A stretch of 63,799 nucleotides of DNA, filler included, from Basidiobolus ranarum (Eukaryota), in assembly GCA_040143965.1 (NCBI GenBank). It is 18 parts of 18 records of this genome, joined end to end, with 100 filler letters (N's around TTAATTAATTAA, not from the genome) between each part and the next. Parts side by side here need not be neighbours in the genome. Positions count along the whole stretch, not along the records: positions 56,823 to 60,262 come from JASJQH010009365.1; 17 more parts are not named here. One strand, given 5' to 3'. Of the stretch, positions 10,685 through 60,362 are shown in pieces. The notes beneath the pieces were generated by a model. The model did not search any database. It saw only the letters and a list, made by a program, of their open reading frames with translations, and was not told where the DNA came from. The translations under genes and the position numbers were made by a program. The first letter of the stretch is position 1; the number at the start of each line of letters is the position of its first letter.

Positions 10685-11690
10685 AACCCTAAAACAGTTT
10701 GCAGACTCCGGAAAATACTCTATGGCTTAAAACAATCTCCAAGAGCTTGGAATAGCAAGTTAGATGCCTTTTTGGAAACACTCAAATTCCAAAAGTGTAA
10801 TGCTGACTATAGTATTGACATCAGGCCAGATAAGAAAAACCCAGCTCTATTAGCCTTATATGTAGATGACCTTATTATAGTAATCAATGACTTAAAGACT
10901 TTGGAGAAAGCCAAATCCAGCTTATCTGCCAAATTCAAAATGACTGATCTTGGAGAACTAATGTACTATCTTGGAATCCAAATTAAGATAGATAGAACTG
11001 TTGAAATTAGCATTGCCTAAACACCAATATAGTCATATATAGCTTAGTACTTAGTTATCTTATAACTCACTAAGATATTACCAATTATTCTCAATTGGAA
11101 TTTACTTGGAAAATTTTTACCAACTTAGAAGTTCTCAGATATATAGATTTTTCAAACTTGTGCTAGAAGCCCCAAACTTTGCACACAAATTCCTGGGACC
11201 TTCCTTAACATATTCTACATGTTAATCTGTTTACATCATGACAAAACTATAAATGTCAACTCTCTACTCAATAAATCAATAAGTGAAAACCACCAATTCC
11301 TCTAATTCTCCAAACCACTTCCAACAGGCTCCCAAATACTATAACAAGAGCTACTAAAACAACAACTTTAAATCAGTCCAAGTATATCCTAGATATACTA
11401 AAGAAGTTTAAAATGGAAGAATGTAATCCAGTATCTACCCCAAAGGAGGCATATCTTAACTTGATAATCAAAGTTGCATCAAACTAGCTAAGAATCCCAT
11501 GTTTCATAATAGAAACAAACATATAGTTATTAAGCATCACTTCATTAGAGAGACTATAGAGAATAAGTTTATTGACTTAACTTATTGTTTGACTGAAGAC
11601 ATGCTTGCTGATACATTTACCAAACCATTAGCTAGACAGAAATTTGAGAAGTTTAGACCTTTATTAGGATTAGTTTATATGACTATATAG
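10685..11690 (+). mobile_element. Copia RT and RNase H remnant (internally deleted)
   Basis: LYGLKQSPRAWN, LALYVDDLII, DNQSCIKLAKNPMFHNRNKHI and DMLADTFTKPL. Confidence 0.93.
10999..11346 (+). mobile_element. Solo LTR, family A (348 bp), inserted in an RT of its own family
   Basis: TG...CA ends, flanked by AGAAC/AGAGC (5-bp TSD with one mismatch); highly similar to the 3' LTR at 11702-12047. Confidence 0.9.
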
Positions 11691-19200: not shown

Positions 19201-21350
19201 ATTGAGAAATACTAGCGAACAAAAGATTACATTACATCGATGCAAAGTGAAGCGGCAGGCATTGTGATGTTAACTAAGAATTTGGAATCAGATAAAAGCT
19301 CCACAATAGTAAGCTTTTATCAAGAATGAATACATATCAATCAACGATCCTTGTAGTAAGTGACTTTTAAACCCGGTGTAGGATACATAAGATATCTAAG
19401 GAATTACTGGCTCTTCTCCCGATAGGAATTTTTCACTTTGGGGACAGCAGAATATCACGTTAGTGAAGAATATCATTATACATCAGTCATATATTTTTTC
19501 ACTTGGCAGTAAATGGACAATATATAGACCTTTCCGTACTAGTCAATCATTATACTTTCCTCTACCATAGTGGCGAGACTATATATTACCATGAAGAATG
19601 TAATGATTTTTATGAAACAGACCTGATAGGATGTGATTGGAGAGGCATTGACACTGACATATACTTGTCAATAAGCAGGCACGAGTTATCATAAGACTAC
19701 TTTCTTAGGAGGCGACAGAGTAGTAAGTCGATATGTAGAGTGTTTTGAATATGCTGAAAAGTGTTCTTTTTTAGTAGCCAACTGGTTTAAATGAGTATTG
19801 CATGTTCCGCATTTAAGTAGCATTCTCTGGATAATTGTAGAGGAAACACAAAATCTGTAGTTAAGTCTCCAACTATGGAGCAATCTATCTTGAATCAAAT
19901 CATCAAGAGCAATACAATACTTGAACTTTTTGAATGTGTGAACCTAGGGACAATGATACCTCAATACAAATACGTGTGATGTAAAACATTACACTTTGAT
20001 CTTACCATAGGCGACAGGTATATTTCTGATTGTAAAGCGAACTTTAATTAAGAATTAATAGACACGCAATAGATATGGATTAAGGGTGAGGATGAAATAT
20101 CTGATAGCTGCGTTTATTTAGCTACAGGTAGGAAACGACCATTGGTGTTCTAATATTGAGTAAAAGTAAATTCTTCAACAGGGCAAAACATCAGATTGGA
20201 GCAAAGCGGCAATATTCGTCCCTTACTCTACTTACCATAGTGTATATGAAGACGTCGGATGACCATGTTTATTGCAAAAATATAGGGAGCTTACATTGCG
20301 ATCTGATCAGCTTGAAATAAAGTATCAACTGCAAATATATTCATATGCATACGCATCAAGCATTTCTCAATAATTAAGATATAGACTTCCAACTTCGATC
20401 ACCAAGGAATGAGAACCCATATATAGGTCAGGCCCCTGCGTAAACTTTAGGCCCCCTTACTTCAACTGATTGCTTTTTAATGTTGAATCTCATTCTTTTT
20501 CACATAGTATGCCATTATCCCCATCACCTAGAAGCCTCGATCGATTGGTATAGTAAGGACTAGAAAAATTACTGGAGCAGCCAGAGAGTGAGTGACTTGG
20601 TTTTAACCCAAGCAGAGACAACGTCAGTTCCTGGAGCGTAACTGACTGATGAGATCGTATTGATGCATCAGCGTTTACATAGTAGCACAAGAACCACATT
20701 TTGGAAAACTAGCTATACAGTTAGATATATCTTTTGCACCTACAACCACTGTTTTGGATACTACAACCGACTACCGCCAATCCAAGCCGGCAGAAACTCG
20801 TGGATATATACATACGCAGTTACCCCTACGAAGCATATCTGCAATTGAGAAATAGATTACAAATACATTGGCTTCTTCAAAGATTTCATTTGCGACTTGA
20901 CCAAAGCACTCAAGGAAAGGCTATTTAGGATGAGAGCCTGACGGTGATATCTCTTCATGAAAATTACTTGATGATACTCTTCTGACAAGGGCTGTTAACA
21001 TATGCTTTTAGTATGCACTCGACTCCATGACGTCGTTGAGTTTGACACAGGTTTTACTTATTTAGCAATGCGAAAAAATAATTAATATTCGAAAACTGCC
21101 CACTTTTATGCATTCTACAATCCATGCTTAAAATATCTATCTCCTCGACCCTGACGGTTAGCTAGTCAACAGTTAGAGAGTCACTCAACAATGATACAAG
21201 ACCTTCAGAATGCTGTACTTGAGCTACAGCAACATGCTGCTCCCTCCGTCNNNNNNNNNNNNNNNNNNNNNNNNNNNNNNNNNNNNNNNNNNNNTTAATT
21301 AATTAANNNNNNNNNNNNNNNNNNNNNNNNNNNNNNNNNNNNNNNNNNNN

Positions 21351-40312: not shown

Positions 40313-41385
40313 TTTTATAATTTGTACACACATAATCCTTGATTACTGCCATTCCTCCCCCCCAATGCTTCTATGTATATTTATTTCTCTTCATTTTGTT
40401 ATATTTTTCATGGTCGTTGACTTTAAAACTTTACTGTCATATCCTATCGTTCCGTTAGAATGTTCAAGTGATTTCTTAAATTTTGTACTTCTGATCAAAA
40501 ATACTTATTGCGCGATATGTTGAGGGTACTGTTTCAGGGAGTTTCATGGCGAAATGTCAGTCCAATAATAGTGATTGGTTATGTTTATGGTAATGATAGC
40601 GTAAGTGATATGTTTAATATAATTTGTAGAGTATCCCACGGCTTGGAGTGTACCCATTGGTTAAGATAGTGTGGGAAACATCCAAAATAACAAACACATA
40701 AAGGCAGCTCGCTGTAGAAACTGTGCTTGATAGTTGCTTTACATGTTATGAATCGTGTGCTAAATCCTCTAAAAATAATCCAGTGGCTACCAATAAAGAT
40801 TGCAACATAGCGTCTTTATGAACAGAAAGATCAATACCCAAGCATCTGTCTTCTCTATTACCGTGTTATCAAGGCGTTTTCACGTCACTGAACCAAGTGC
40901 ATATCTGTTGCCATTTTCATCACTGTCCAGGATGTTTTACATACTCTCCAAAGCATCGATTCTCTCAAGCACTATCACGGACAGTACATCATCTGTTTGG
41001 ATGACCAAGCGATAAACCACTATTACTGGACCAAAGCCAAGTCTAAGTGTTATATCAGCGTTGAAGCTGACTCCACCAATCTTTTCCACTCTAGGTCACA
41101 CGACAAATATAGATATTATTTATCCTTATTTCCAAATTGATTAAATACCAGGATTTGTAGTTTATTTTTTGATTGGTTACTAGCCGACTGCTTTTCTAAT
41201 ATTTCAATCCAATTCACTAAAACTTTTCAACTGACACAAGTATCCATTTTAATTATTATTAACTGTACCTGTTTCCTCTAAGAATAGACAAGTGTGAAAT
41301 AGTACCACTGTATAAACTTTGTTTGCTTCACTTGACATTCGTCTAGAGTCTTTGAGAACCCTTCCTAGATATTTCCTTTGTAAAC

Positions 41386-42547
41386 ATGGAAAAGGAGTAT
41401 GATCCAGGAGAGGTGCCACTTTCGCGTGTGTTAAGTGACCGTTCTTTAGAAGAGGATAGACCTGGTTTTTTTGATCTGAGTACTTCTGATGATATAATCC
41501 ATGGATTTAACGAATTAGTCCAAGAATCTCCCACTTTCAGTAGAAGAAAATCCCCTTCTGAAGACTTACCGGAAGATAGTTATCGTACACCTTCTATTCC
41601 AATAGTGACTGTTACTGATTGCGCCGGCCCTTCACATTGCAATGGTAGAGATACAGAGGAGGGAGGCTCACCTATTACCTCAGCAAGATCTTCAATATCC
41701 GACTTGTCTGACGTTCAGTTTTCTCTGGGTGACCGTTGGAATTCTGCAACACCAACGATGGAGAATTCTAAAGGGAAAGAGATAAAATCGGAGTCTGCAA
41801 TAGAGCAAGATATGGCATATGATGGTAAACCTCCAGTTCTTCTTCAAACTCAAGTACGTCAGAGAAGGGCCCAAGAGCTCAAGGACAAGAAGAACTTTCC
41901 AAAGCGAATCTGGGATTTTATTCGCAAACATTGTAGAAGCTCCCTTACGCCTAGTGGATTTCGCTCTTTCATGCGTTGTTTGGTTGCATTTCTTGTAGTC
42001 AGTATTCTCATGATTATTCCAAGTACCGCCAAATGGATTGGCCCAGTGGATGTCTTAGCTGGTACTGGGTTGATGTTCTTTCCTGCCAATAAAACTTTAG
42101 GTGCTCAACTGGAGGCCTCTTTATTAGGAGTTATATTTATTCTTATTACCGGTGTATACAATTATGCCGGGTTAGCTTGTCTAGTCGCATTTAATACTAG
42201 TGGCCACGCGACAGACTATGGTGCATCGTTAATAGTTGCTGTTTGGCTTATCTTCGCCACGCTTGTTTTAGGCTACCTGAGAACCAAATATTCTAGACTG
42301 TACACACCTTGTGTAGCTGCACAAATCACCCTCTTTTTCGCCTTATTTACGAATATGAGAATTACAAATCTGAGTTTCTCTATTGTGTGGTCGGTTAACA
42401 AACCATTTTTGCTTGCAATCGTCATCACATGTATATCGAGTTTGGTAATATTTCCCCAGAGTGCGACTGGGAAGCTGGCGTGAGTATTCATCGAATGAAG
42501 CCTTCTTCCAACTTTCACTAATGATTTTTCTTTAGTAATGAGACGCG
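41386..42547 (+). CDS. N-terminal half of a second ArAE/FUSC-like membrane protein
   Basis: Disordered Ser-rich N-terminus, then RCLVAFLVVSIL...FFPANKTLGAQLEA...IFPQSA transmembrane block; intron near 42480. Confidence 0.8.
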
Positions 42548-45727: not shown

Positions 45728-46093
45728 ATGGTAGCCATTAAACTTCTCACAACAATCTCTCTCTTCGCTGTATCCTCCTTGGCTTGGGTTTGGCCCTTAC
45801 CTGCGAAGATGGATGTTGGAAACACCATCATTCGCGTTGACAAGTTTAACCTTGGTTTCAGCATCAAGGCCTCAGTCGGTTCCGATATTCTTGAGAGAGC
45901 CGTTGAGCGCTACAAGAAGTTGATCTTCATCGAAGGTGAATATGGCTCCCTTCTCGATACTGTTGAGAAGACTGTATTCCCCACCCCCACTACATCTGTC
46001 CCTACTCAGGCACCCGCTCCCAAGGGTACATTCCCAATCTTGACAGGTCTCAGCATTGTGGTGAATGGAACCGATACCAAACTCAATCTTGAC
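45728..46093 (+). CDS. Secreted beta-N-acetylhexosaminidase (GH20), N-terminus
   Basis: Signal peptide MVAIKLLTTISLFAVSSLA, then WVWPLP and ILERAVERYKKLIF, typical of the GH20b domain. The true start is probably 45728, not 45503. Confidence 0.82.
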
Positions 46094-51183: not shown

Positions 51184-52857
51184 TGTTAAAGTATTTGAGA
51201 GCCCATTGGAAGTGGTTTGGAGAATTAGAGATATTGGTAGTTTTCTCTTATTGATTTATTGAGCAGAATGTTGGCATTTATGGTTTTGTCAAGATATAGT
51301 CAAACTAACATGCAGAATGTGTTAAGGAAGGTCCCAGGAACATGTGTGCTAAGGTTGTGGCTTCTAGCGCTGGTTTGAAGAAATCTATATATCTGAGAAC
51401 TTTTAAGTTGGTGAAAATATTCCAAGTAAATTCCAATTGAGAATACTGGGTAATACTTTAGTGAAATATAAGATGACCAAGTCCTAAGCTATATATGACT
51501 ATATGGGTGATTAGGCAATGCCAATCTCAATACTCTCCCTCTGCTACATAGTCATATAAAGTCATCCTAAGCAAGATCTAAATTTCTCAAATTTCTGTCT
51601 AGATAATGGTTTGGTTAATATATCAGCAATCATGTCTTCTGTAGAACAATAAGTTGAATCTATAAACTTATTCTCTATAGTCTCTCTAATGAAGTGATTT
51701 ACAATATCTATATGTTTGCTTCTGTTATGAAACATGGGATTTTTAGCTATTTTGATACAACTTTGATTATCTTGAAATATTGTACTTGGTGAATTTTGAG
51801 AATAACTTAAATCAGTTAAGAGTTTTCTTGACCATGCTGCTTCTTTTGTTGCTTCATAGGCAGCCATGTATTCTGCTTCTGTTATTGAAAGTGATAAAGT
51901 ATTCGGGAGCCTGTTGGAAGTGGTTTGGAGAAAATAGAGAAATTGGTGGTTTTCCCTTATTGATTTATTTAGCTGAAAGTTGACATTTATAGTTTTGTCA
52001 AAAAGTAAGCATTTCACTGTGCTGAATGCGTCAAGAAAGAGCCTAGGAATATGTGTGCAAAGTTTGGGGCTTGTAGCACAAGCTTGAAAAATTTGTATAT
52101 CTAGGAACTTCCAAGTTGATATTTGAAGCAAATTCCAATGGAGAATAATCAGAAATATCTTAGTGAAATATACAATAACTAAATACTAAGCTATATATGA
52201 CTATATAGATGTTTATGCAATGCTAATTTCAACAGATATAGCTATAGTAAGTTGTTTCTTTGAATTCCAAGAAATAGCTTCATCATAGCAAAGAAATAAG
52301 TATGCTGTTGTAAATCTCCTGTCTTTAGTATCTCTTCCCAGTTTGTATCTGAAGATACCCATTGGATTAAAGTTTGATCAGAATATGTGTACTGTAAGCA
52401 CAGATCCACTTTATCTTTCAAATATATGAAAATCCACTAGACTGCCATAATTTGATCAGATCCATAAATTTGAAGATATTGGCACATAACTCCCACAGAA
52501 TATGCATTATCTGGCCATGTTCCAACCATGATATGTATCAAACTACCAATAAAGATTTGGTCAAGTTAAGATTAGTCTCCATTAGGGTAGATACTGGATT
52601 ACATTCTTCCATTTTAAACTTCTTTAGTATATCTAGGATATACTTAAACTGACTTAAAGTCATTGCTTTAGCAGTTCTTTCTATCATAGCTTGGATTCCA
52701 GAATAGTATATCAGTTCACCAAGATCAGTCATTTTGAATTTGGCAGATAGGCTGTATTTGCTTCTATCCAAAGTCTTTAAGTCATTGATTACTAAAATGA
52801 GGTCATCTACATATAAGGCTAATAAAACTGGGTTTGTCTTATCTGGCCTGAGATAGA
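51184..52857 (-). mobile_element. Copia RT, RNase H, PPT and 3' LTR-A (51184-51532), with a nested LTR-A at 51892-52234
   Basis: LALYVDDL, TEAEYMAA and DNQSCIKIAKNPMFHNRSKHID; PPT GAGGGAGAG; the nested LTR has imperfect GAAAG/GATAT flanks. Confidence 0.92.
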
Positions 52858-52918
52858 CCCTAACAAATATAAAATTGATTTCATCGAGATTGGATCCACC
52901 CTTCTGTAGCACTAAACC
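52858..52918 (-). mobile_element. Stub of the CMC transposase-side terminus inserted in copia RT
   Basis: CCCTAACAAATATAAAATTGATT...TTGGATCCACCCT is the reverse complement of about 37505-37565. Confidence 0.82.
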
Positions 52919-53180
52919 TATTGGGAAAATATGGTCTGTTTGGAGGAACTTTAGAAAAGTGGAGTTGTGAATAGCTTTGTGAGATAATTATTTATTGTCC
53001 AGAAATAAAGCATTTATACATTTTGGTAGAAATACAGAAAACTGACACTGGGGTTGTGTTCAGAATATCTGTGGGAGTAAAATGAGCTATCTTTGGGGCA
53101 ATTTGGACAAGTTTGAAATTTCCAATATGGAATTGCTAATTCTCCCATTATTCACAAACAAATATAATATATGTTCCATT
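52919..53180 (-). mobile_element. LTR, family C
   Basis: Closely matches 25923-26182. Confidence 0.82.
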
Positions 53181-56722: not shown

Positions 56723-56822
56723 NNNNNNNNNNNNNNNNNNNNNNNNNNNNNNNNNNNNNNNNNNNNTTAATTAATTAANNNNNNNNNNNNNNNNNNNNNN
56801 NNNNNNNNNNNNNNNNNNNNNN

Positions 56823-57778
56823 CGTTCATGGTGGAATATTGCAAAACATTGGTCGTGGCTATACTGATCTCACTGCTGCTCTCTGCGCTGTAGGTATTCA
56901 GGCAGAGGAACTTCAGATATGGAAAGAAGTTGATGGTATATTCACTGCCGATCCTCGCAAAGTTCCCAACGCGAGACTACTGAATATTATTACTCCCGAT
57001 GAGGCCGCTGAACTTACGTACTACGGTTCAGAGGTTATCCATCCATTTACCATGGATCAAGTTATTCATGCACGAATCCCTATTCGTATTAAAAATGTTC
57101 AAAACCCTGGTGGGAATGGTACTATTATCCTGCCTGAGGTTCATCAGAAAGGAAGCACCTCTCCTCATTCACCTGAAGTCTTACTTGAGAATGGATATTT
57201 ACCAGATCTTTCACGCAGACATCCTACAGCCATAACAATCAAGGAGGACATTTTTGTTTTGAATATCCGTTCTAACCGCAAATCCGTATCCCATGGCTTT
57301 TTTGCTAGGATTTTTGCTACTCTAGATCGTTATGGTATTGCTGTTGATGTGATCGCTACTAGTGAAGTTCATGTTTCTATGGCTTTAGGTACGAATACCT
57401 GTGAATTACACTTGGCAGGTGCCGTGAAAGAACTCACCCAAATCGGCTCGGTAGACATCATGAAGAATATGGCGATACTCAGTTTAGTTGGGAAGCAAAT
57501 GAGAAATATGGTTGGAATTGCTGGCGCTATGTTTACGAGCCTTGCGAAGTCAAATATCCTTTTTTACAATTCGCTCAATTTATTCAAGATGATGTGATAT
57601 TATACTTCTTTAACTCACCTCTCCACATATTAATATTGAGATGATTTCACAGGGTGCCTCGGAGATCAACATATCGTGTATTATCTCCAAGACACATGCT
57701 GATAATGCTCTTCGTGTCGTTCATGACAGTTTACTGGCGAACGTTGATTATAGTGAGTTAAATGGGAGTATTATTTAA
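56823..57778 (+). CDS. HOM3: Aspartate kinase, C-terminal kinase and ACT domains
   Basis: IGRGYTDLTAAL, ELQIWKEVDGIFTADPRKVP, EAAELTYYGSEVIHPFTM and TSEVHVSMA; after the intron, NINIEMISQGASEINISC. Confidence 0.97.
57554..57626 (+). other. U12-type (minor spliceosome) AT-AC intron, 73 nt, phase 1
   Basis: 5' splice site ATATCCTTT; branch point TTCTTTAAC at 57606-57614; 3' end CCAC. Excision restores LAKSNINIEMISQG in frame. Confidence 0.92.
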
Positions 57779-57806
57779 TGTTGCACCTTGAATTTCTTGA
57801 TTTTCT

Positions 57807-57926
57807 GGACACTATGGACAATTCTTAAAATTTATGGACAATATTTCGTTAGTACAGTATTTTAGATGTAGATTATGGACACTTTAAGGACAATTATTAG
57901 TTTATTCTATGGACATTTACAGGACA
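57807..57926 (+). repeat. Cluster of seven GGACA motifs in the aspartate kinase 3' UTR
   Basis: Direct count; contexts are TGGACA or AGGACA, starting about 30 nt after the stop codon. Confidence 0.85.
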
Positions 57927-58512
57927 TTTTTCATTTTAGCTTTGATTTTTTATATAGCATGCTTAGTATATTATTTTTAGTGCCAAAGCAAGATCAGGGT
58001 CATCTGAATCCTATTTATTCACCGCTGTACCCATCTCAATTTCATTTGGAAAAATAAATAATGATCGTATTTTTTCACAGGCGAACTTTCGGTACTTGTT
58101 ACATTCGCATTTGGTTCGAATGTGCAGAACCCAGTGCCTCCATACAGGTGACGATTGGAAGGTACTAGCCAAGTGATGTGTGAGTGAGTGTTTTCTATTC
58201 TCTGGGCTTCAAACATTACTTCCCTTCTACGGGCCCTCGAGTAGTAAAGCGGTGTCTCTGCAATCTCTATCAAGCATCGGTGCACCTCTAAAAATCATAC
58301 CGTAATTTTCGGATAGTCTTTCAGGTAATTTATGGGATTTTCAATTAATTGCTACCGTTTCTTGATCCGAATTTAACCAATGGCCATTGAAGAGAGAGGA
58401 TAGGATCCTAATTTCCATATTAACGGTATTGGTCAGATCCAGATATCTTAGTTTACTTTCATAATCATAAGGTACGGTGGAAAGAAAATCTACTTGTTAA
58501 CTAATCCAAGCT

Positions 58513-58910
58513 ATGGAACACGCAGGAAGTGGTCGTGGTGATTACTATGGTGCTCAAAGCAATTTTCAATACAATGGACGCGGTAGAGGAAGGGGTCGTG
58601 GTGGTAGAGGCAACTGGAGAGGTCGAGGACGCGGTGGAAATAATTACCAAGGGCAAGGACGTGGTAACTTTAATAAAGGTTACGTAAATGCCAACTCTGG
58701 AGAGTACCAATCAGCTCCTAAAGTAAATATTACTTCCTGTTGATCACCTATCTTAACGTTCATATAAGTAACTTTACTAATTCTATACCTGACTAGAAGC
58801 AACGCACTGAGCATCCCCATTTCAATTCAACCATCAATGATATATCCATTTATTATAAGAAAAGTTTTTTACAAGATCCTTGGTCTCATCTGGAAGCGCC
58901 GACACGATGA
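58513..58910 (+). CDS. Small RGG-rich protein with C-terminal MPLKIP/TTDN1-like motif
   Basis: Exon 58513-58722 (GRGRGRGGRG), GT-AG intron 58723-58796, exon ending ISIYYKKSFLQDPWSHLEAPTR*. YxKxSxLxDPW is the MPLKIP signature. Confidence 0.7.
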
Positions 58911-60362
58911 GAAACTACAAGTATTATCTCTACACAAGATTTACGCTGTAAAGAAATTGTGGTAAAGGAGTCGGGAGAAAACGTAGAACTCTTGCCATAT
59001 ATTCATGTATCTAGTATTAGGCAATTCAAATGTTACACTGTATGCTCTCTTCTGTCTATTTACTTTAGGAATACACCTACGCTTACATATATATAAATAT
59101 ATATATACGTTTGGCTTTGAATAAATCTTTACTCCTGCAAATACCCTCCTTGAGCAACAGGTTCCGGTTCAAAACGGGTAGTTGAATATGACTGGTTCAT
59201 AGTAGATATTCGCTATCTCCAGTGAATTTTATATGTATATAGTACACCAAAAATCAAGTTCGAAGAAGGGAAATATCCCTACTAATACGGTTCTCTAAAA
59301 GCTTGCCCCTTACTGGGTTGATTGTATGCACCAAACAAACCAATTATATCTCATTAACCATGGCAAGGGGGAAGAGTTGAGTTTTACTCATTGTTTCAAG
59401 CTTGTTCAGCTCACATAAATCTGGTTTATCTCACTATTCTCAGTCCAATAAACATTGAATCCCTTGACCACATCATCAATATCAAAATATAACTCCTGGA
59501 ACACATTTAACATACATAACCTAATTCCGCAAAGGGGGTATCTAAACCAACATTTTATCTACCGAAAACACGACAAATAGTAACAAGTGTGGCGCATACT
59601 AGTTACTTGTTCATGTACCCATCAATATAACTTTCAAAACTGCAAACATTCAAGTTATCCATTATTATAGGAGTAGCTGGAAAGTGGAGTATGTATATCT
59701 CACTTGTTGTATCTGGTTTTAATACAACATGAACAAGAAATTGAACCGTTGTATAGTCTCCAGTTCAAAGTATTGATGTCACTCTGGTTTCAGAATCCTG
59801 GAGTCCACCCTAGAACCCTACCCAGCCTTAGCTACTCTCGGATAGCTCTGGCTAAATACTGTGGTGATAAAATAGCCATGATTCAATAGATCACTAGAAG
59901 AACAAATGTGGAACTGCAAACAATTCGAAAACAGGTCTAAAAGATGTTGGAGCTATTTTGTTCTTGACATAGATAGTGATGTGCAAATATTCCTATCAAT
60001 TGTAAGAAGGTTCTTGTTTAGTGCGAGGTCGAAATATGATGTTGTAGAGTGCTTCACTAATATACTTAGTATAGCCCCCTCTCTCAATTGATGTCCCAAA
60101 TCAGCGTAATTACTGTATATACATGCAGGTAGATAGTTTAGGAGACTGACCTCTCTGAGCTTATGAATAGTTATGAGGCAAAGAGAACTGCGTGAAAATA
60201 TAGACACCCATTCTATGGTAGAACAAGTAGATTCATTCTCACCTTCTATTAGCATTGACTAGNNNNNNNNNNNNNNNNNNNNNNNNNNNNNNNNNNNNNN
60301 NNNNNNTTAATTAATTAANNNNNNNNNNNNNNNNNNNNNNNNNNNNNNNNNNNNNNNNNNNN

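Follow-up and report, generated by a model that had tools for sequence, protein, structure and literature searches.

A 73-nt segment interrupting the 3′ part of an aspartate kinase gene of Basidiobolus, at positions 57554-57626 of the DNA analyzed here, is very probably a genuine U12-dependent AT-AC intron, lying in phase 1 within the second ACT domain of a HOM3-type enzyme. This reading is based on the signals of the segment, on their register with a gap defined by protein homology, on the lineage of the host and on a public gene model that agrees with it. From these features of the sequence we infer that the RNA is spliced at these borders and that splicing depends on U11 and U12. An earlier note on the same DNA had proposed that a fungal aspartate kinase gene contains an AT-AC intron of the U12 type here, a proposal backed by the signals, by the restoration of the protein and by the lineage.

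The window, by which we mean the whole stretch of DNA that was analyzed (63,799 bases, 36% G+C), consists of 18 pieces of about 3.45 kb and is not one chromosome stretch. The pieces are joined by 44 N, a 12-base linker with stops in all frames and another 44 N (for example at 56723-56822), so that 34 runs of N are present. Because linkers separate the pieces, those that adjoin in the window are not genomic neighbours, and 56823 is where the aspartate kinase gene is cut short. The intron-bearing piece spans 56823-60262 (3440 nt), and the start of its contig cuts the 5′ part of the gene. The exon upstream of the intron therefore represents the 3′ part of the gene and carries the closing part of the AA_kinase domain, then the first ACT domain, then profile positions 1-24 of the second one (Table 1).

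Table 1. Features of the aspartate kinase gene and of its predicted intron, in coordinates of the window.
Feature	Position	Strand	Details
Aspartate kinase exon	56823..57553	+	Matches to Pfam AA_kinase (E 8.7e-24) and to ACT_9; 86% identical with B. meristosporus P0001 over 243 aa
Predicted U12-type AT-AC intron	57554..57626	+	73 nt, phase 1, 30% G+C; based on signals, protein repair and identity with P0239
5′ splice site ATATCCTTT	57554..57562	+	Direct reading; its first base is the first intron base
In-frame TGA inside the intron	57595..57597	+	Ends the ORF 56779..57597; the ORF-call protein P0121 stops here
Putative branch-point sequence TTCTTTAAC	57606..57614	+	Direct reading; ends 12 nt before the last intron base
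Terminal AC	57625..57626	+	Earliest AC or AG that lies 10 nt or more downstream of the branch A
Last aspartate kinase exon	57627..57778	+	Rest of the second ACT domain, stop 57776-57778; ACT_9 27-60 of 61, E 3.8e-13

Read without splicing, the kinase frame is open from the linker (56779) and reaches the TGA inside the segment with the C-terminal sequence ...LAKSNILFYNSLNLFKMM, and a second frame, open from 57614, reads ...NIEMISQGASEINISC... down to the stop at 57776-57778. Retention of the intron would truncate the protein before its last 50 residues. Deletion of 57554-57626 joins both frames in phase 1 to give ...MFTSLAKSNINIEMISQGASEINISC..., which is open up to the same stop. In this joined product, positions 1-24 of the Pfam profile ACT_9 close exon 1 and positions 27-60 open exon 2, while the two profile positions between these matches correspond to the last full codon, S, and to the split codon, N. 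Similarly, 10 of the 11 named fungal aspartate kinases with which the window was aligned are continuous across the junction, with one column falling between the window exons; the eleventh row, a partial protein of Puccinia (P0003), ends before the junction. Conservation in exon 2 is similar to that in exon 1 and extends to the natural stop. The run-off of the open reading frame, the 5′ signal, the branch site 12 nt from the end and the terminal AC are all, by direct reading, as the earlier note had described them, and the restoration of the ACT domain that it had claimed is confirmed by the profile and by the homologues.

To compare splice choices, we considered all 9096 in-frame, stop-free deletions of 21-300 nt within 57400-57760, whatever their end dinucleotides, and scored them with a profile of 13 fungal aspartate kinases from which the window sequence was left out. 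The deletion of 57554-57626, together with its equivalent slides, reached 555.0 bits, the highest score of the 9096, compared with 523.4 bits for the best GC-AG deletion (57544-57640), 491.9 bits for the best GT-AG deletion and 482.0 bits for read-through. The equivalent slides exist because ATAT stands at both borders of the intron (57554-57557 and 57627-57630), so that five cuts yield the same mRNA; the AT-AC cut is the only one of these five that belongs to a known splice type. Removal of the 104 nt delimited by the GT-AG pair at 57549/57652 leaves a 1-nt frame offset uncorrected, and this pair is not among the 211 in-frame, stop-free candidates with GT-AG, GC-AG, AT-AC, AT-AG or GT-AC ends, in agreement with the frame shift previously ascribed to it.

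The segment combines the features of a U12-type AT-AC intron, namely a 5′ site like /ATATCCTT, a TCCTTAAC-like branch site with one mismatch and a terminal AC, with a restored frame and protein. The consensus of U12-type branch sites is TTCCTTAAC, and the branch lies at a short, set distance from the 3′ end of the intron. Compared with this consensus, TTCTTTAAC contains a single C-to-T difference (CC to CT) and hence one cytosine instead of two; a U at the position of the second C would still wobble-pair with G in U12. The presumed branch adenosine is 57612 or 57613, located 13-14 nt from the 3′ end of the intron. According to the available text of Olthof et al. 2024 (PMC11347168), two cytosines are a mark of strong minor-type branch sites in human, and U11 and U6atac pair with positions +4 to +9 of the 5′ splice site, which read TCCTTT here. 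For minor introns, the corresponding text of Larue & Roy 2023 (PMC10639083) reports that phases are biased in the order 1 > 2 > 0. The phase 1 of intron 57554-57626 fits this published bias.

Established knowledge of the minor spliceosome suggests how the intron would be removed. U11 would pair with ATATCCTTT and U12 with TTCTTTAAC, leaving the branch adenosine bulged, after which U4atac/U6atac.U5 would join and U6atac would take the place of U11 at the 5′ splice site. Two transesterifications would then link 57553 to 57627, the 3′ AC being picked because it lies only 13-14 nt away from the branch point.

Taken alone, the motifs are not significant in this AT-rich window. The sequence RTATCCTT is seen 6 times against 5.78 expected, and a loose pattern of 5′ splice site, branch and AC or AG end is found once against a simulated mean of 0.86, with at least one occurrence in 168 of 300 simulations. 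Significance arises from register, since the signals coincide exactly with the limits of the stretch whose removal protein homology demands. From base composition, a segment delimited by homology has a probability of about 1.4e-7 of starting with a U12 5′ site, holding a branch motif at the right distance and ending in AC or AG.

Several other candidates of the window were rejected as chance matches or coding sequence. Five further ATATCCTT sites lack an in-register branch motif within 400 nt, a U12 candidate at 45770 (+) lies within an open frame of 215 aa, and another at 19386 (−) has no coding context. Matches to ATATCCT and TCTTAAC at 11384 (+) and 52641 (−) fall inside frames resembling a copia-type reverse transcriptase. 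A near-identical stretch, translated ...KYILDILKKFKMEECNPVST..., is present at about 11100-11630 (+) and about 52390-52940 (−); one of the two copies has YVDDLIL upstream, and the copy at 11384 is full of stops. These stretches near 11384 (+) and 52641 (−) resemble reverse transcriptase of a Ty1/copia-type retrotransposon. Elsewhere in the window, a 375-aa open frame at 41356-42480 (+) matches Pfam ArAE_2_N (putative ER transporter, E 9.5e-12), and six other long open frames (175-254 aa) gave no Pfam match.

A small gene at 58513-58910 (+) has a Gly/Arg-rich first exon and a second exon matching Pfam MPLKIP (E 9.5e-10). Its 74-nt GT-AG intron (58723-58796), which reads GTAAAT...TAG and has a TACTAAT-like branch, provides a major-type comparison; judged against this neighbour, the AT-AC intron is ordinary in length and differs only in its signals.

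The interrupted gene has the domain order of a fungal HOM3-type aspartate kinase, AA_kinase followed by two ACT domains (Pfam AA_kinase, ACT_9), and PF00696 is found in all 120 matches listed (2688 were significant). Its closest match is aspartate kinase P0001 of Basidiobolus meristosporus CBS 931.73, followed by three Basidiobolus proteins at 73-75% identity and then by proteins of Kickxellales, Mortierellales and Mucorales at about 65-73%. The identity to P0001, which is 86% over all 243 aa of the first exon, is 87% for the whole spliced product (292 aa, up to the stop). In a maximum-likelihood tree of 23 rows, the window gene and P0001 are sisters (support 100/100) on a stem that is long (0.78), and P0002, P0004 and P0005 form a second Basidiobolus clade, both clades being separate and fully supported. 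Given this separation and the 62% identity between P0001 and P0005 of the same strain, Basidiobolus has two old lineages of aspartate kinase that have diverged deeply. Between B. ranarum (P0002 and P0004) and B. meristosporus, the 'b' copies share 84-86% identity, to be compared with the 87% between the window gene and P0001; these values fit the view that the latter two are orthologues of two Basidiobolus species.

Two public proteins are products of a 3440-nt contig, which has the length of the intron-bearing piece and is evidently identical with it. P0239, a 217-aa protein named Aspartokinase of Basidiobolus ranarum, is contained letter for letter in the spliced translation, which it matches from the ATG at 57052 to the natural end, and the deposited gene model therefore already removes exactly these 73 nt, although as support for the intron it may not constitute independent evidence. 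P0121, an unnamed 181-aa ORF call in one cluster with P0239, ends in intron read-through. The prediction that annotators would truncate this gene thus holds for the plain ORF call, which stops inside the intron, and fails for the named protein, which equals the AT-AC-spliced product.

The lineage of the host is known for minor introns. B. meristosporus was credited with 249 of them (0.554%) by Larue & Roy 2023 (PMC10639083) and with 237 by Olthof et al. 2024 (PMC11347168), and the available text of the latter also reports U11, U12 and U6atac genes in zoopagomycote fungi and a putative divergent U4atac in B. meristosporus. Since both introns and snRNAs of this sister species are published, the inference of a minor spliceosome is already in print for it. 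For the organism of the window, a working minor spliceosome seems plausible on indirect support only; an Rfam search of the 63.8-kb window, a sample too small to inform, gave 0 matches at the gathering score and 0 at E ≤ 0.1. Full-text literature searches turned up no article connecting aspartate kinase with minor introns; lists of introns sit in supplements and web databases, and the orthologous intron of the gene of P0001 may already be catalogued. We consider the intron to be correctly identified but fairly ordinary, given that an abundance of such introns is already established for the genus and that a public model already splices the 73 nt. Its contribution is one clean, homology-anchored example added to the minor introns of an already minor-intron-rich Basidiobolus. 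Because animals have no orthologue of the host, a metabolic gene, the intron is not countable among the ancient positions shared by animals and fungi.

We also analyzed the position of the intron in other fungi. Scanning JGI metagenome contigs with the fungal alignment matched 578 stretches, of which 548 were relatives, and the best 80 of these were taken. An intron at this codon was found in 0 of the 78 informative fungal loci from these best 80 of 548. A single tblastn segment spans the junction in 77 of the 80 loci, the sequence of L072 is continuous over the junction up to the contig end, and L069 and L077 have GT-AG introns located 7 codons downstream of the Basidiobolus intron position. 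By eye, L069 (1650-1780) and L077 (4550-4680) seemingly contain two tandem short GT-AG introns around a 5-nt micro-exon, ACAAG or GCAAG, which would supply the Q of ...EMISQGASE.... Only L070 and L072 are clearly early-diverging, with 97% and 89% identity to named Mortierellaceae proteins; the other 78 of the 80 loci show at most 62% identity to any named early-diverging protein, and most loci consequently say little on fungi that still have a minor spliceosome.

At the protein level, 238 collection proteins were compared at the junction; one listing covered the best 120 of 1739 matches, so that weaker fragments may have escaped. Of the 238, 198 have both flanking motifs at normal spacing and 18 look odd, and among the proteins compared a read-through of the NIL... 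kind is present only in P0121, the window's own. Five unspliced ORF fragments of other, unnamed fungi (P0171, P0197, P0209, P0222 and P0234) diverge right after MFT or MFR, about 5 codons upstream of the Basidiobolus intron, and their read-through starts with C-V or S-V, which is what a GT intron should yield. As the breaks fall at differing codons, this short stretch of the gene appears to have taken introns at at least three positions in different fungi.

Could the major (U2-type) spliceosome remove the segment instead, whether by treating it as one of the rare U2-type AT-AC introns or by using GT-AG or GC-AG sites close by? We regard this as highly improbable. TTTAAC also matches the loose major branch consensus yUnAy given in the available text of Olthof et al. 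2024 (PMC11347168), and 73 nt is an ordinary length here, as illustrated by the typical 74-nt GT-AG intron 1.1 kb downstream in the next gene. However, the TCCTTT block is the one that pairs with U11 and U6atac and is unlike a U1 site, every GT-AG or GC-AG alternative loses invariant residues (the best falls 31.6 bits lower, the best GT-AG 63 bits lower), and the obvious GT-AG pair breaks the frame. It is likewise hard to believe that the 73 nt are a recent, unspliced insertion with an ATAT target-site duplication, which would make this aspartate kinase copy truncated or a pseudogene. Exon 2 is open and conserved down to a natural stop, and the presence of a full U12 5′ site and of a branch at the right distance is unexpected in an unspliced insertion, as the probability of 1.4e-7 indicates. 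Neither the 63.8-kb window nor the 80 metagenome loci yielded a second copy of the 73 nt, the longest other matches in the window being 11 nt exact or 18 nt at 89%; many near-identical copies across the genome would be the mark of an introner-like or transposon-derived intron family. Against these points stand the 4-nt direct repeat that flanks the segment and the other Basidiobolus aspartate kinase copies, which could cover the function.

A further possibility is compatible with the U12 reading and concerns the origin of the intron: the splice would be real, and the intron would be a lineage-specific gain in the Basidiobolus-only 'a' paralogue, not an ancient retention. We hold this to be unlikely, though worth serious consideration. 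The lack of the intron in all 78 informative metagenome loci, two Mortierellaceae included, speaks for a gain, as does the contrast, drawn from the available text of Larue & Roy 2023 (PMC10639083), between a reconstructed Zoopagomycota ancestor low in minor introns and B. meristosporus, whose density of minor introns is the highest among fungi; moreover, ATAT at both borders fits an insertion, and the host copy sits on a long branch. Yet 76 of these 78 loci are at most 62% identical to named early-diverging fungi and, if they belong to Dikarya, come from a group without minor introns anyway, Ascomycota and Basidiomycota being described as devoid of convincing minor introns in the same available text (PMC10639083). 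A 4-nt AT repeat is also weak evidence in DNA of 36% G+C, and the gain of minor introns is described in the literature as extremely rare, and as very rare outside Physarum. The narrower scenario of a young U12-type gain in the divergent paralogue through an ATAT-duplicating insertion, in which the duplicate supplied the AT of the 5′ splice site, is in our opinion more doubtful still. If true, it would provide a traceable example of how Basidiobolus reached the highest fungal minor-intron density from a poor Zoopagomycota ancestor. Should the intron turn out to be confined to Basidiobolus, it would count as a candidate for the gain of a minor intron.

Whatever its origin, the predicted U12-type intron can be compared with known systems. 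AT-AC U12-type introns of animals and plants begin with an ATATCCTT 5′ site and finish with AC, and their TCCTTAAC-like branch lies 10-15 nt before the 3′ end; the classical examples are reportedly those of Hall & Padgett 1994 and Tarn & Steitz 1996. The Basidiobolus intron shares with them the 5′ site, the branch-type site and the terminal AC, and differs by its length of only 73 nt, by a host gene without animal orthologue and by the T in place of the second branch C. U2-type AT-AC introns are not known to have the TCCTT block or a fixed branch-to-3′ distance; their termini are like those of the Basidiobolus intron, which unlike them has both. Rhizophagus irregularis, which according to the available text of Larue & Roy 2023 (PMC10639083) has 205 minor introns and all four minor snRNAs, also lies outside Dikarya and shows canonical motifs and the phase order 1 > 2 > 0, but it belongs to another phylum, and that text describes no aspartate kinase intron there. 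The closest system is provided by the minor introns of B. meristosporus: the species is another one, the protein identical to that of the window being named B. ranarum, whereas the genus-level lineage, the kind of intron and the consensus logic, in which a 5′ site is combined with a branch near the 3′ end, are alike.
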